Source: Sphingomonadaceae bacterium
GTDB taxonomy: Bacteria > Chloroflexota > UBA6077
Assembly (NCBI GenBank): GCA_050261575.1
Contig: JBLNDL010000093.1
Span: forward strand, 1 to 64,000
DNA: 64,000 bases
Direction: 5' to 3'
Of the stretch, positions 21,001 to 24,000 are shown one piece after another (position 1 is the stretch's first letter; each line of letters begins with the position of its first letter). The position numbers were made by a program.

Positions 21001-24000
21001 GATACCGACTTCCTGGCCGATCTCACGGATGGTCGGGGGGTAGCCGTGGTGCTGCTGGAAGCTAGCAATGAAGTCGAGGATCCGTCGCTGTCGCTCGGAA
21101 AGTGGGCGCATGACCGTCCTCCACAAGTAGAAAAGGCCGTAGAACGCACGTTCTACGGCATTCTATCCGCCTGCCGTGACTATTGTCAAGCGTCGAGGCG
21201 GTGTTCGGCCCAGCTTTCGCGAGTCGGTGCGCCCGGGCTACGCCGAGGCGGCCTTCTCCACCTTTGCCAGCCGCTTCATCAAGCGCGACTTGCGCCGGGC
21301 GGCGGCGTTCCTATGTATGACGCCCTTGTTCGCGGCCTTGTCCAGGGCGCTGGCCGTACGGCGGACATCCTCCCGAGCGGCTTCTAGCTGCCCGCCGTCG
21401 ATGTCCTTGCGCGCCGTCTTGACCAGGGTCTTCAACTCCGACCTGATCGGCTGGTTCCGCTGTCGCCGCCTCTGAGCGACTCGGATCATCTTGATGGCAG
21501 ACTTCGTATTGGCCAACCTATCACCTCTCCCGCGGGATGAAAGCTGTACAAAAACCGGCCCAGCGCTCTGGCAGGTGCCCAGCCACAGCCAACTGCCGCC
21601 CGTTGGGCCAGCCGTTTCCTGTCGCAAAAACGGATATTACAGCAATCCCGATAGTTTGTCTAGTGCTTGGGAACCCTACCGGGTTCGCATCGCCGCCTAT
21701 CGAACTGGGCGATCCGCGAGCGAGTGGTCGGGCGGGCCGATCTGGCGCGCTTTGTTGCCGGATATGCGGACGGGGTTGCGTCCGCTCTCGCTGCGTCGAT
21801 GGCGAGGGGGTCGGCCCAGGAATCCGAGGACGAGGACGGCGCCCGATACCGCGCCGTGATGGCGCCCGGGCCCACTCGCCCGCGCGCTTCCTCCAAGCTG
21901 CGGGCTGCGTTCGGAGAAGGGGAGGACGTGTGACCCCAGGTCCCGCCTCTGGAAGGTGCCTTCGTCGATCCAGACTGGCGGGTGCGCGTCGGCCGGCCGT
22001 GGCCGGCGGAGACTGAGCCATCCCCACCGGCCACGAACGAGCCGGTCGCAAGGAAACGGGGCTGCGGAGTCGAGGATGCTCGCCCTAGGCGATCGCGGCC
22101 AGACCGCCCCTGATCGCCTCCTCGTCCTCGTCCGAGGTGCCACCGCTGGCGCCGGCAGCCCCAACCACCTGCCCGTCGATGATGATGGGCAGCGCGCCCT
22201 TCCGGAAGACCGTCTTCCCGCCGGTCATGGCGGCGATGCTGCTGAAGCAGGCGAGGCTGGACTGCGCCCTCTGCTCCATCTCCCCGCTACTGACCCCCCA
22301 CGCTGCGGCGGTGTACGCCTTGCCCATGGCGATCTGGGGTGAGAGGAAAGGCGCGCCGTCCATGCGAGAGAGATGCACCAGGATGCCCTTTTCGTCTACC
22401 ACCGCGATGCTGAGCTTGACCCCCATCTCCTGGGCTCGGGCCACTGCTCCCTTGACGATCCGCTCGGCTGTCGCCAACTCCAATGCCATCTTCTCTGCCT
22501 CCTCACAATCTCTTCACCGTTGCGCCGCCCAAGAACACCTAACAGAGCTCACCCACCGATACACGGAGACCCCTGAGATCGTCCCGAGAGAACCACAGGA
22601 TCCTCGGTGACTTCGTGTCTGGGCGGTTGCGTCGAGGTGTCTCCGAGCCACAGAGTGTTACTGCCGCAGGGGACTCTATCCCCGCCGCACCCGCATCTGC
22701 TCGCCGGTCCATTCGAAGCTGAGCCACGGGGCTATCGTGCCTTCTTCTTCCGTAAGCTCCTCGTACCACCGGCGACCTTCCTCGCTCCATCCTCCCTCGG
22801 AGGCCGGTTCAGGGGTGGGAGAGTCCGCCGGGTTCGGCTCCTCGCGGTCGCGATTCGTCATGGCATCAGATCCTTCCCTGAGGTGGGGCCTAACACTCGG
22901 GTGCCGGCGCCGCCGGCATCCCTCCGGAAGCTAGTATATCAACAACCCCTTACTTAGGCAGCATATTGACACGAACAGCAAGAGGAGTATAGTAGGTGAC
23001 GTGGGAACGTGCTCTCTATAGCGGCCGCTATCGATGGTGGCGCCATGCAGGATGCGCTAGCTTGTGGCGAAGAGAGCGTGCCCTGTAGTGCCCGCCTGAG
23101 CGTGCCAGGCGGGCGCGCGGTTTCTCTGCCTGAAGGGGGTGGTAAGGGCAACACAGTCCAGTAGCGCCGAGTCTATGCTGATCTGCCTGACCAGAGGCGC
23201 GGTTCCGCCCGCAGCCGCGGTGCGGATCGGACTTGCATTCCTTGGCAGGAGGCTGGAGATGGGCAAGTTGCGGATTCTGTCGATCAAGGGCGATCGGACT
23301 GTGACTTGGGATCGGAAGCGGGCAGCGGAGGGCGATCCGGAGGCGCAGGAGGCCGTGCGCGAGGCCGAGCGGATCTTCCGGGAGGCGCTTCGAAACGGAG
23401 CCACCGCCTTCCGTCTGGAATCGGGTGCCCCAGCCACCCGGCTGGATCGGTTTGACCCGGAGGCCGACCAGGTCGTGGTGGTGCCTCGGGTGGCGGGAGG
23501 ATGACGGATTTCCTGCAGGGGCCGCAGATCCTGGTACTCGCTAGTATCCTCCTGCTCGTCCTCCTGTGGAAGCTGTGGTGCCGGTACTACCTGTCTCCTC
23601 CTCGGGAGCTGGATCCCGAGTCGGAGAACAGGGCGGCAGCGTTGTTGCGCGAGCTGCTCTCCGAAGGTGAGCACCAGCAGTTGGTCCAAACCGGATACCT
23701 CTCAGTCCCCAGCCGGCACGTGGTGGGGCGTGTGTACAGGGTCCCCGTGCGCCCGGGCTGGGTGGATGTGTATGAGGCCGACCGGCTGGCGATGAGGATA
23801 TGCGTCGAGCCGGTGGAGCAGCTTCCACAGGGCGACGTCGTGCTGATGCACAAGCTGATGATCGAGGGGGCGGAGCAGGAGTACCTGCGCATCGCCAACA
23901 TCGTCTACGTGCGGCCGCCCGTTGGCGTGCGCTGGAGGCGCTACCAGCATTGAGGCAAAGCGCGGGCGTCTGGCCTGCACACGGGCGGCGGGGGGACACG

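Follow-up and report, generated by a model that had tools for sequence, protein, structure and literature searches.

Introduction

Ubiquitin-like conjugation in bacteria is known from systems such as Bil, Bub, and CBASS Cap2, in which a linked E1 and peptidase are already present. The sulfur carriers ThiS, MoaD, and CysO rely on a MoeB/ThiF-type E1 whose gene in most cases lies apart from theirs and which serves more than one carrier; the gene pairs for MoaD-MoaE and CysO-CysM commonly have their E1 unlinked, and MoaD and MoaE form a stable complex in which the carrier tail enters its partner. Unlinked housekeeping E1 enzymes also activate the ThiS/MoaD-like Gly-Gly proteins of the archaeal SAMP/UbaA and Thermus TtuB/TtuC systems, of which SAMP and TtuB are both sulfur carriers and protein modifiers. 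The origin of E2-dependent conjugation from such sulfur-carrier chemistry is the evolutionary question addressed by the gene pair described here, a widespread two-gene module for an apparently ThiS/MoaD-like Gly-Gly protein and a predicted minimal E2-fold protein (the partner), with no linked E1.

The pair can be compared with the bacterial Ubl/E1/E2/JAB operons described by Iyer, Burroughs, and Aravind (2006, PMC1779556, Table 1, row 6d). These share with our pair a Gly-Gly beta-grasp gene beside an E2-fold gene and a conserved His after, not before, the conserved Cys; some bacterial E2-like families do without the HPN motif, their His standing after the Cys. Each of our two models has a chain of the Bub complex (PMC11601596; PDB 9eav) among its structural matches, 9eav_C (Z 4.0) for the small protein and 9eav_D (Z 3.1) for the partner. 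Unlike these operons and pathways, our pair comes without a linked E1, JAB, or serine peptidase at 21 loci, and its partner protein is membrane-anchored, much smaller, and without HPN flap and C-terminal helices. The Prok-E2, UQ_con, and ubiquitin-like Pfam models gave no sequence match to the pair. The ThiS/MoaD/CysO carriers share with the small protein a length of about 81 aa and a tail of the pattern hydrophobic-P-x-V-x-G-G; they differ in that the small protein matches them only over the last 22 columns, and that its partner does not belong to the MoaE, ThiG, or CysM type. SAMP/UbaA and TtuB/TtuC are not known to use an E2-like protein, whereas the Chloroflexota pair has a dedicated E2-fold partner, as modeled, encoded with every copy.

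Results

A pair of overlapping genes conserved across Chloroflexota

Within the window (the whole stretch of 64,000 nucleotides analyzed, from a Chloroflexota bacterium of soil), the ORFs of 81 and 150 aa described in the genome-wide survey's note were both found, and their 4-base overlap is visible in a junction that reads ggATGA (Table 1). From their translations, the neighboring genes in the window presumably encode the DNA polymerase III delta subunit, LexA, ribosomal protein S20, a GlcG-like protein, an HtrA-like protease, and LepA. The metatranscriptome match across the junction is weak evidence, as RNA libraries can contain DNA. The paralogues that had been reported are also present: a second pair on contig C25 (small gene 87352-87594, partner 86876-87298, minus strand) and, on contig C70 (51736-52125), an unpaired partner gene that lacks an upstream small gene.

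Table 1. Positions, in the window, of the gene pair and its features.
Feature	Position	Strand	Basis
GGAGG, Shine-Dalgarno-like, 6 nt 5' of the small-gene ATG	23248..23252	+	read from sequence
Small gene, 81 aa, predicted beta-grasp, end V-P-R-V-A-G-G then stop	23259..23504	+	sequence, AlphaFold2, relatives, structural neighbors
Tail codons R77 V78 A79 G80 G81, predicted tail contact with partner Cys101 loop	23487..23501	+	sequence, alignment, predicted complex
Metatranscriptome cover, one soil contig, 208 nt, no mismatch, spanning gene junction	23378..23584	+	metatranscriptome match
Partner gene, 150 aa, ATG overlapping small-gene stop (ATGA)	23501..23953	+	sequence, alignment
N-terminal membrane helix, residues 6-30	23516..23590	+	model secondary structure H6-30; sequence
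Soluble domain, residues 37-136, predicted E2/RWD-like	23609..23908	+	model; VIA-align rows
Connector loop C101-V-E-P-V-E-Q-L-P109, Cys101 TGC at 23801-23803	23801..23827	+	alignments; predicted complex

The pair is, as had been claimed, spread across Chloroflexota: the partner profile matched 85 of 401 genomes, and the close small-protein family was found in 67 of the 401, all within those 85 (tallies that include the unpublished-flagged genomes G038 and G219 for the partner and G038 for the small protein). The small gene lies directly upstream of the partner on the same strand at 28 of the 30 best partner loci, in line with the survey, the exceptions being one locus cut by a contig end and one without a small gene. 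A GG-ended protein is likewise encoded upstream at 10/10 loci of more distant relatives. Genomes carry 2 to 4 co-evolving pairs, and identity among relatives is 60% to 88%. Organisms with the pair include Ktedonobacter racemifer DSM 44963, Thermogemmatispora carboxidivorans PM5, and Dictyobacter species; going by the source names of the relatives, the pair is unannotated in all. Co-inheritance of the two genes as one module is supported.

Rescans of both proteins against Pfam, NCBIfam, PADLOC, and PHROGs yielded no meaningful match, as the survey had found for the first two: the best Pfam E-values were 0.13 and 0.14, PHROGs gave nothing below E 0.19 for either protein, and PADLOC returned for the small protein only Cas11 (E 0.014, 13.9 bits), which was taken as chance, and no row for the partner.

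A beta-grasp protein with a constant Gly-Gly end

The beta-grasp fold proposed for the small protein was recovered by AlphaFold2 (pLDDT 93.3), with the order strand-strand-helix-strand-strand-strand. Its structural neighbors in Foldseek and VIA-align were PB1, RBD, UBL, MoaD, SAMP1, CysO, and BubA; the Foldseek rows were beta-grasp domains at E >= 0.06, as were nearly all of the best 50 VIA-align rows, at Z <= 4.8. Individual alignments covered BubA (9eav_C; Z 4.0, rmsd 3.4, 57 aligned), MoaD (1fm0_D; Z 3.5, residues 1-81 on 1-81), and CysO and SAMP1 (4hro_A), both at Z 3.0. Structural matches of both proteins of the pair are all weak, at Z <= 5.0, and so below the 7 to 8 that, by the tool's own guide, unrelated models commonly reach. 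The model of the small protein is thus a confident beta-grasp, with low-scoring individual matches. Several of its VIA-align matches are Gly-Gly modifiers or sulfur carriers. Its surface exposes a conserved helix, A32-F40, with the motif EAERI, and two virus-rich clusters in a protein atlas look alike to it.

There are 138 relatives at E <= 0.01. Across 73 sequences, M1, G11, W17, A29, E37, G47, D66, P76, G80, and G81 are invariant; of the tail residues previously listed as such, P76, G80, and G81 therefore stand, whereas R77 and V78 are kept in at least 90%. The protein ends in VVPRVAGG, then stop. The conserved Gly-Gly ending was confirmed, being exact in 113 of 120 listed relatives; the other 7 carry 1 to 16 additional residues beyond it, and these extensions, short and mutually unlike, resemble those of ubiquitin-like precursors. 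All 29 paired loci have GG-stop, with differing Gly codons (GGA/GGC/GGT/GGG) and a distance from small gene to partner start of -4 to +201 nt. Since codons and spacing both vary, the ending is no by-product of the gene overlap or a ribosome-binding site, and, judged by the codons, the Gly-Gly end is under protein-level selection. With the 10/10 distant loci included, the tail lies at or near the chain end throughout. The residues before it change between subfamilies (PRVAGG, PRMVGG, PRIVGG, APIAGG, APVQGG, SLTRGG) and GG is constant, as would be expected if a shared third enzyme, and not the co-evolving partner alone, reads it.

We aligned 73 family members with 27 ThiS/MoaD proteins from the same class using hhalign. 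Only the last 22 columns were aligned (probability 61%, E 7.9e-5), laying ...(D/E)x(I/V)VxVPRVxGG over ...GDEVxxIPPVSGG; over these 22 residues, the tail resembles those of ThiS/MoaD in sequence. The ThiS (PF02597), ubiquitin, and Prok_Ub models do not match the small protein, and PF02597 matched nine other loci in this genome.

A membrane-anchored partner that models as an E2/RWD-type fold

The single N-terminal membrane helix claimed for the partner was located at residues 6-30. Because basic residues come after this helix, the soluble domain is probably cytoplasmic. Its model (pLDDT 86.5) runs from two helices through a four-strand meander and a connector loop to a long helix and a short strand, an order that fits the UBC fold, with all Z values under the tool's guide value for a trustworthy match. 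In VIA-align, which is independent of Foldseek, 15 of 50 rows were titled E2 enzymes, RWD domains, FANCL, or Atg10. The top row was Ubc9 (4y1l_C; Z 5.0, rmsd 3.1, 83 aligned), followed by the RWD domains of GCN2 and RWDD2 (rows 2 and 3, Z 4.6), and RWD rows ranged over Z 4.6-2.9. A second structural search gave E2/UEV chains in 40 of 50 rows, at Z 2.5-3.4. An E2/RWD-type fold is thus what the soluble domain resembles as modeled, with low Z values (<= 5.0).

In the model, Cys101 directly follows strand 4 (E95-101) and precedes the crossover helix (110-131), and it was found in 125/125 partner domains of the loci compared. It can be likened to the catalytic Cys of E2 enzymes, as it occupies the same connector position between strand 4 and helix. 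No residues of the superfamily are better conserved than Cys101 and Pro109; C101, P109, D112, H117, K118, and ten other positions are invariant in 34 partner sequences. The invariance noted earlier thus holds for C101, D112, and H117, but E106 varies in this larger set. His117 lies 16 residues past the Cys and is invariant in the close family; across the wider family, in which Cys101 persists, its place is taken by Q, K, L, T, or a gap, and this speaks against the Cys101/His117 catalytic pair suggested in the survey's note. Arg44 is kept in the bacterial subfamilies, bar one case of uncertain alignment.

The partner sequence contains no HPN motif, and its model lacks the C-terminal helices 3 and 4 of E2 enzymes, having only a short strand after the long helix. 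The modeled connector is only about 8 residues long, and that of Ubc9 about 30. With RWD/UEV domains, which bind ubiquitin-like proteins non-covalently, the model shares the helices, four-strand meander, and helix, in low-Z rows. These domains have no connector Cys, whereas that of the partner is invariant; the RWD motif is YPxxxP, whereas the partner connector has P104 and P109, given as four residues apart. The plant complex 4x57 also has one member fixed to the membrane, but in our pair it is the E2-like side that is anchored.

The only recurring weak partner match was DUF3531 (PF12049), a family of cyanobacteria and plants mentioned by one paper. It matched 9 of 34 proteins along a stretch made up of strands 3-4, the loop with the Cys, and the helix (best E 0.015, all below the curated cut-off of 25 bits), and a six-frame scan of the whole genome with its model hit solely the partner gene (E 0.43). 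The superfamily of the partner domain, for which there is no Pfam model, numbers 6204 cluster representatives at E <= 0.001. Of nine longer proteins with this domain that were scanned with Pfam, six are fused, N- or C-terminally, to other modules (FtsZ in one, sigma-54-like in three, pentapeptide repeats in two); two additional proteins have a SWIM finger. The pair also occurs in a 197-kb phage and two viral contigs. Three phage copies retain the partner Cys, have Val or Ile in place of Arg44, and encode a small protein that ends in PG or PS, without GG. The Cys may therefore be structural.

Predicted complex and co-variation

Binding between the two proteins, predicted before, was predicted again: the heterodimer reached an ipSAE of 0.83 (runs 0.82, 0.83, and 0.84), compared with 0.00 for the best of 3 controls. 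Of 157 solved complexes, 116 attain this mark, as do 2 of 215 mismatched pairs. Our runs had at least 95% of contacts in common, and pLDDT of the partner chain was at least 88. In the predicted interface, a beta-sheet face of the small protein (5-12, 49-61, 73-75), the counterpart of the Leu8/Ile44/Val70 patch of ubiquitin, packs against partner helix 112-131, and tail residues 75-81 lie on loop 101-109. Arg at tail position -4 is accompanied by Asp or Glu at partner position 106 in 102/102 pairs, and in GG-ended pairs without this Arg the acid is missing in 6/7. This co-variation, which reflects only a few independent events, fits the predicted interface.

Gene neighborhoods and E1 supply

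That no E1 (ThiF) or JAB gene adjoins the pair was upheld at 21 places, 20 of them scanned by profile. At none of the 20 related loci did the scan of 122 neighbor proteins against ThiF, JAB, and UQ_con (cut-off E <= 1e-5) reveal an E1, a JAB, or another deconjugating enzyme in the flanking 4.8 kb or so, and none was seen in the translations of the neighbors in our window, which were read rather than scanned. The same-operon E1 and deconjugating peptidase that mark Bil, Bub, and 6E-type systems are thus absent from these places. This genome has two ThiF-family (E1) genes and nine ThiS/MoaD genes, so that its E1s already serve several carriers; it also has a MoaD-E1 fusion whose neighbors are TusA- and DsrE-like genes, and a cluster of JAB and cysteine synthase. 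A ThiF-type match was found in 84 of the 85 partner-holding genomes, the exception being an 81%-complete assembly, but also in 366 of 401 genomes overall; being nearly universal, ThiF does not discriminate.

A histidine kinase is encoded immediately upstream at 7 of the 21 places (20 scanned loci and this window). The kinase link drawn by the survey holds in Ktedonobacteria-type lineages, where the synteny of pair and kinase is stable across genera, and not elsewhere; in this bacterium's own order, the pair sits stably beside housekeeping genes. Mobile-element genes were absent from the loci examined, save for an IS200/IS605 pair at one.

Discussion

We favor, at a probability of roughly 0.42, a minimal Ubl/E2-fold module that is loaded by an unlinked E1. 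It would combine a ThiS/MoaD-derived ubiquitin-like beta-grasp protein with a membrane-anchored partner bearing a minimal E2/RWD-type cytoplasmic domain. The Gly-Gly carboxyl would be adenylated by an unlinked housekeeping MoeB/ThiF-type E1, and the activated end would pass to Cys101 in the form of a thioester or, with lower probability, of an acyl-persulfide. Held at the membrane, the partner would thereby be an E2-like carrier dedicated to the small protein, which would be moved from there onto nearby targets or the partner itself; we infer that this conjugation would be covalent. In Ktedonobacteria, the module probably modulates signalling, as it sits within a sensor-kinase gene cluster. 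This reading draws on the two modeled folds, the ThiS/MoaD-like tail, the invariant connector Cys with the close family's His after it, the predicted complex and the co-variation that fits it, the constant GG with its occasional precursor-like extensions, and the ThiF-type E1 matches of this genome and of 84 of the 85 holders. Several observations run against the Ubl/E2 reading: the lack of a linked E1/JAB, the near-universal ThiF, and Z <= 5.0; the missing HPN flap and C-terminal helices, the short connector, and the non-conserved His117; the phage copies that keep the Cys without GG; and the tight one-to-one pairing, multiple co-evolving pairs, and fusions, which look more like obligate binders or an adaptor.

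The main rival, somewhat less likely, is that the two proteins only dock, the partner being a UEV/RWD-like receptor without catalytic activity and the beta-grasp protein its dedicated ligand. The tail and its free Gly-Gly carboxylate would then be only a binding epitope, possibly held by Arg44, and the complex a tethered adaptor or regulator, placed by the N-terminal part of the partner (membrane helix, FtsZ, sigma-54-like domain, or SWIM finger), whose A32-F40 helix in the small protein would recruit a third component, e.g., a kinase. The strong predicted heterodimer is as expected for such a pair, and so are the translational coupling and one-to-one pairing of the genes, with their 2-4 co-evolving pairs per genome, and the joining of the partner domain to unrelated modules (6/9 proteins and two with SWIM). 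Phage pairs keep partner domain and Cys without GG, and Arg44, bar one uncertain case present in the bacterial subfamilies, is lost in the three GG-less phage copies. The variable His117, the absence of a linked E1 or JAB gene, and the RWD and UEV domains among the top partner rows agree with docking as well, and 4x57, a complex of a plant E2 and a membrane-anchored ubiquitin-fold protein also among the rows, offers a non-covalent precedent at the membrane. However, a pure epitope should drift with its receptor, as the rest of the tail does, whereas GG and the exact chain end are constant in all bacterial subfamilies, in a tail of the ThiS/MoaD pattern, the one that E1 enzymes read. Furthermore, the Cys occurs in 125/125 domains, while RWD domains by definition have none, and the post-GG extensions of one subclade would block carboxylate recognition unless removed.

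It is improbable that the pair is instead a sulfur relay, with a MoaD/ThiS/CysO-like thiocarboxylate carrier delivering sulfur to Cys101 as a persulfide for membrane-associated thiolation or for redox/sulfur sensing. The ThiS/MoaD-like tail, the 81 aa that equal the length of E. coli MoaD with end-to-end model alignment, the one invariant Cys in predicted contact with the tail, the genome's wealth of sulfur-carrier machinery (9 ThiS-family genes, MoaD-E1 fusion, JAB/cysteine synthase cluster), and the unlinked E1 common for known carrier/partner pairs would all suit this role. Yet the roughly 100-residue E2/RWD-like partner has no obvious substrate pocket, its structural lists hold no MoaE, ThiG, or CysM likeness, the Pfam ThiS model misses the small protein, and FtsZ/sigma-54-like fusions and kinase neighborhoods look non-biosynthetic. 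Least likely of all is a selfish or conflict module (toxin-antitoxin-like, or phage defence/counter-defence) with incidental Ubl/E2 likeness: it would account for two small overlapping genes in several copies per genome, their patchy spread, the phage and viral contigs, and the virus-rich look-alike clusters, but neither PADLOC nor PHROGs matched a defence or toxin-antitoxin family, relatives are highly conserved (60-88% identity), the pair keeps its place next to kinases in Ktedonobacteria or housekeeping genes in the bacterium's own order, and mobile-element genes were confined to the one IS200/IS605 pair.

What this analysis adds is the predicted E2/RWD-type fold of the partner and the ThiS/MoaD-like tail, as aligned, of the small protein. 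A bolder form of the Ubl/E2 reading, which we consider unlikely, is that Chloroflexota, cultured Ktedonobacter, Dictyobacter, and Thermogemmatispora among them, and some of their phages hold the simplest ubiquitin-type machine yet seen, charged by the cell's sulfur-carrier E1. In such a machine, an 81-residue Gly-Gly modifier would be served by a membrane-tethered E2-fold carrier of about 100 residues with one catalytic Cys; it would lack an E1, E3, or deconjugating enzyme of its own and tag membrane-proximal targets downstream of sensor kinases. If true, the pair would be a living link from ThiS/MoaD sulfur carriers to E2-dependent conjugation, and possibly the root of the E2/RWD fold. If no covalent bond is formed, it would still be a new and specific docking module of a ubiquitin-like protein and an E2-fold domain, joined by evolution to membrane anchors, FtsZ, sigma-54-like factors, and SWIM fingers. 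The pair is tractable, as it occurs in culturable strains and both proteins are small, and it may be a very simple bacterial device for protein tagging or docking.

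A strict pairing of two short genes

The small gene, encoding an 81-aa beta-grasp protein, and the partner gene, encoding a 150-aa membrane-anchored protein, overlap in the window (table below). At 28 of the best 30 partner loci, the partner gene had the small gene directly on its 5' side and on the same strand; one of the other two is cut by a contig end, and at the second none was found. In all of 29 pairs, the small protein ends in GG followed by a stop codon, with varied Gly codons, a gap of -4 to +201 nt to the partner start and, often, a separate GGAG. Since both the Gly codons and the gap vary, selection on the Gly-Gly end acts on the protein. 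Another ten partner loci, matched more weakly (E 1e-7 to 1e-21), represented other subfamilies, and each of the ten had an upstream small ORF that matched the small-protein profile and ended in GG, preceded by varying residues (PRIVGG, PRMVGG, APIAGG, APVQGG, SLTRGG). The genome-wide survey's note had placed the GG gene directly upstream of the partner at most of the loci it compared, and the counts at the best and at the weaker loci bear this out. The pairing is both old and strict.

The genes flanking the pair in the window, read from their translations, seem ordinary: DNA polymerase III delta-like, LexA, ribosomal protein S20, and GlcG-like genes on the 5' side, and an HtrA-like protease and LepA on the 3' side. 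Elsewhere in the genome, contig C25 carries another such pair, and contig C70 a partner gene by itself; there, the ORF 5' of the partner encodes a 367-aa glycosyltransferase-like protein rather than a small protein. One of two soil metatranscriptome contigs compared (208 nt, 0 mismatches) spans the junction of both genes, weakly suggesting that they are transcribed together, as the run was small and DNA was possibly present in the RNA library.

A GC-rich interspersed repeat of about 55-70 nt lies just 3' of the partner gene. It has 41 matches in the genome at 77-100% identity, including one just beside the lone partner on C70. Soil metagenome depth over the repeat climbs from 38 to about 600, and the predicted fold of the stretch around it is not unusual (z -0.85).

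Coordinates of the gene pair, associated features, and loci mentioned in the text
Feature	Sequence	Position	Strand	Remark
GGAGG ahead of small gene	window	23248-23252	+	sequence
Small gene	window	23259-23504	+	81-codon ORF; product ends ...VVVPRVAGG
Partner gene	window	23501-23953	+	150-codon ORF; ATG overlaps stop of small gene (ggATGA)
Metatranscriptome contig	window	23378-23584		spans junction of both genes
DUF3531 match	window	23759-23884		partner residues 87-128
Stretch folded	window	23954-24075		around the repeat
Interspersed repeat	window	23975-24060		core about 23982-24051
ThiF-type E1 region	contig C43	57409-58404 and neighbors		L074
ThiF-type E1 region	contig C14	10261-12902		L073
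TPR-CHAT protease	locus L051	7502-10315		next to pair
CDC48-like ATPase	locus L059	9249-11588		near pair
Roadblock/GTPase genes	locus L062	4398-6647		downstream of pair
SWIM finger-partner fusion	locus L038	1404-2573
SWIM finger-partner fusion	locus L039	1225-2295
Phage pair	L075 (KX853510.1)	4809-6061
Phage pair	L076	3977-6052
Phage pair	L077	3962-5306

Distribution of the two families

Of 148 candidate relatives of the small protein, 138 passed E <= 0.01. A length of exactly 81 aa is shared by 95 of the 120 listed; 113 end at the GG, and 7 carry short, unlike extensions past it. An extended subclade (P0053, P0056, P0062, P0068, P0069, P0071, and P0101, all from short metagenome contigs) has 1-16 residues after the Gly-Gly that are not conserved among its members. 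Searching the 401 sampled Chloroflexota genomes with P0068 did not recover this subclade: identity was 68% at best, and each row listed ended right after the GG. Named source organisms were all Chloroflexota, and all source names of relatives were "hypothetical", except for one "regulator of protease activity HflC". This label was discarded, as there was no SPFH match behind it.

The partner profile matched 85 of the 401 genomes, and the close small-protein family 67, all of them among the 85 when the tables were compared; these tallies include genomes flagged as unpublished (G038 and G219 for the partner, G038 for the small protein), whose sequences were left out of the analysis. Named carriers include Ktedonobacter racemifer DSM 44963, K. 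robiniae, and several Dictyobacter, Thermogemmatispora, and Tengunoibacter strains, found by a contig scan keyed on a single pattern (MHKLMIE), which covers the close family and is uninformative on other phyla.

A word-indexed search returned 34 relatives of the partner. Against 1.84 billion cluster representatives, its profile matched 191 at E <= 1e-30, 1351 at E <= 1e-10, and 6204 at E <= 0.001; this places the domain in a large superfamily, which no source name seen annotates. One of the other subfamilies numbers 899 relatives, and in another the N-terminus bears a true SWIM CxC...CxH finger. Seven wider-family proteins gave nothing against Pfam, where even the visible SWIM motif went unreported. 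Among longer relatives, the partner domain is C-terminal to FtsZ (1 protein) or to truncated sigma-54-like AID/DBD proteins (3 proteins), N-terminal to pentapeptide repeats (2 proteins; these three types comprise P0282, P0254, P0276, P0270, P0239, and P0245), or C-terminal to a SWIM finger (2 proteins). The domain is thus portable; what normally accompanies it on the N-terminal side is a membrane helix.

Neither protein gave a meaningful match in Pfam, NCBIfam, PADLOC, or PHROGs, and the best E-values in a profile search of PDB sequences (0.22 for the partner, 0.52 for the small protein) were taken as chance. DUF3531, a Pfam family of unknown function from cyanobacteria and plants, matches the partner weakly. 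It matched 9 of the 34 partner-family members (best E 0.015), and in a six-frame scan of the whole genome its sole hit was the partner gene. No function for DUF3531 was found in the literature searched, in which one paper mentions the family.

The pair is also present in a 197-kb phage from an enrichment culture (KX853510.1) and in two IMG/VR contigs. Here, the small protein is duplicated or N-terminally extended and ends in PG or PS, not GG, and the partner domain, its Cys kept, is the C-terminal portion of a protein of 268-404 aa whose N-terminal portion is beta-rich. These copies came only from a tblastn search of a phage collection, followed by one with the phage protein itself as query; scanning a viral contig collection with the small-protein and partner alignments found no relative. 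In the KX853510.1 record, a CRISPR repeat region is also annotated some 1.3 kb upstream.

Predicted folds and complex

The small protein was predicted to adopt a beta-grasp fold (pLDDT 93.3), as had been proposed earlier, with beta-grasp-type neighbors at low Z. In VIA-align, these included protein L (1ymh_E, Z 4.8), a PB1 domain (4mjs_A, Z 4.5), BubA (9eav_C, Z 4.0), RnfH (8ahx_H, Z 3.9), MoaD (1fm0_D, Z 3.5, residues 1-81 aligned to 1-81), SAMP1 (4hro_A, Z 3.0), and CysO (4n6e_B, Z 3.0). Foldseek found no match to either model in the PDB at E <= 0.001; above this threshold, its top rows were PB1, Ras-binding, and UBL domains for the small protein, and the list for the partner included Mad1, Csm1, Ube2S, and Ubc7.

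In the partner model (pLDDT 86.5), a membrane helix (6-30) is followed by two helices (39-52 and 55-64) and four strands (66-70, 77-82, 88-92, and 95-101); after an 8-residue connector come a long helix (110-131) and a short strand. In a search independent of Foldseek, 15 of 50 rows were E2 enzymes, RWD domains, FANCL, or Atg10 by title, among them Ubc9 (Z 5.0, rmsd 3.1, 83 aligned) and, at Z 4.6, the RWD domain of GCN2. Three more rows (VPS37A, Knl1, and a Bub-complex chain) we take to have an E2/RWD-type fold. In a second look, E2/UEV chains occupied 40 of 50 rows (best Z 3.4). All structural scores lie under the level that the search tool calls trustworthy, so that the fold assignment depends on how consistent the hits are and not on any single match.

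The two proteins were predicted to form a complex with an ipSAE of 0.83 (0.82-0.84 in three runs), against 0.00 for the best of three controls. Of 157 solved complexes, 116 reached the benchmark mark for this score, as did 2 of the 215 mismatched pairs. Between runs, at least 95% of contacts were in common, with a partner-chain pLDDT of at least 88. The predicted interface comprises residues 5, 7-12, 49-61, 73, and 75-81 of the small protein and residues 37-54, 72, 101-109, and 112-133 of the partner, and, among other close contacts, R77 pairs with residue 105 and V78 with residue 102. A specific heterodimer is predicted, in which the tail docks on the Cys loop. With a sheet face on the helix after the Cys loop and the tail on the loop, it presumably resembles the "closed" E2~ubiquitin state.

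We compared 125 partner domains, with some places represented twice; 112 of the domains had a small ORF upstream. Where the tail has Arg at position -4, partner position 106 is Asp or Glu (102/102 pairs); in GG-ended pairs without this Arg, it is Tyr, Val, or Gln in 6 of 7. This co-variation supports the predicted contact, although it represents only a few evolutionary events. Cys101 and His117 had both been described as invariant. Cys101 is indeed present in all 125 domains, but His117 falls below 90% in a broad alignment of 20 sequences, in which Pro109 is invariant and Ala45, Leu53, Cys101, and Glu125 reach at least 90%. The bacterial subfamilies retain Arg44, one case being uncertain; in the three GG-less phage copies, Val or Ile takes its place. 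A degenerate SWIM finger formed by Cys101...His117 was considered and dropped, as the His is unconserved and the genuine SWIM fingers of wider-family proteins lie in another part of those proteins.

Gene neighborhoods and candidate E1 enzymes

Among 122 neighbor proteins within about 4.8 kb of the pair at 20 loci, none matched ThiF, JAB, or UQ_con, in agreement with the survey's claim that no E1 or JAB gene adjoins the pair. At seven loci, all from Ktedonobacteria-type families, a GAF-PAS histidine kinase gene lies directly upstream on the same strand, and at an eighth it is two genes away. A Ser/Thr kinase with a periplasmic-binding domain follows directly downstream at five loci. Found at one locus each were Roadblock/LC7, Arf-like small GTPase, and DUF4388 genes; a TPR-CHAT (caspase-like) protease; and a CDC48-like double-AAA ATPase. 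Within the bacterium's own taxonomic order, Usp-glycosyltransferase, histidine phosphatase, and GyrA genes recur.

The genome itself encodes two ThiF-type E1 enzymes, both away from the pair. One has a fused N-terminal MoaD-like domain and adjoins TusA-like, cysteine-synthase-like, and DsrE-like genes, and the other has Prok-JAB and cysteine synthase genes nearby. Together with nine ThiS/MoaD-family loci, these constitute a rich sulfur-carrier repertoire. Co-occurrence with ThiF does not discriminate, as ThiF matched 366 of the 401 genomes and 84 of the 85 partner holders. The nine ThiS/MoaD genes and those of the class end in ...GDEVxxIPPVSGG or ...ILPAVAGG; when 27 such proteins were aligned to the small family with hhalign, only the last 22 columns aligned (probability 61%, E 7.9e-5).

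A possible role for the Gly-Gly end

The sequences and models support a conserved gene pair, one member encoding a beta-grasp protein that ends in Gly-Gly and the other an E2/RWD-like protein. Our preferred reading of the Gly-Gly end, to which we assign a probability of roughly 40%, is that it is used chemically, through an unlinked MoeB/ThiF-type E1 and Cys101. This is favored because the partner-contacting part of the tail changes in step with the partner, whereas neither the GG nor the precise end of the chain varies among bacteria, because the tail fits the ThiS/MoaD pattern, because one subclade has precursor-like extensions, and because the partner Cys is invariant. Nearly as good, and quite possible, is a pair that serves docking only, a reading that accounts best for the fusions and the one-to-one pairing, for the phage copies without GG, and for the connection of Arg44 with the GG. 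A sulfur relay is improbable, and a conflict module slightly more so.

No description of the pair was found in the open-access literature searched or in passages of PMC1779556, and the searched copies of Pfam, NCBIfam, PADLOC, and PHROGs hold no model for it. As it did not fall within any defined family at the sequence level, we place it in none, and file it as a previously undescribed form of the bacterial Ubl/E2-like theme.
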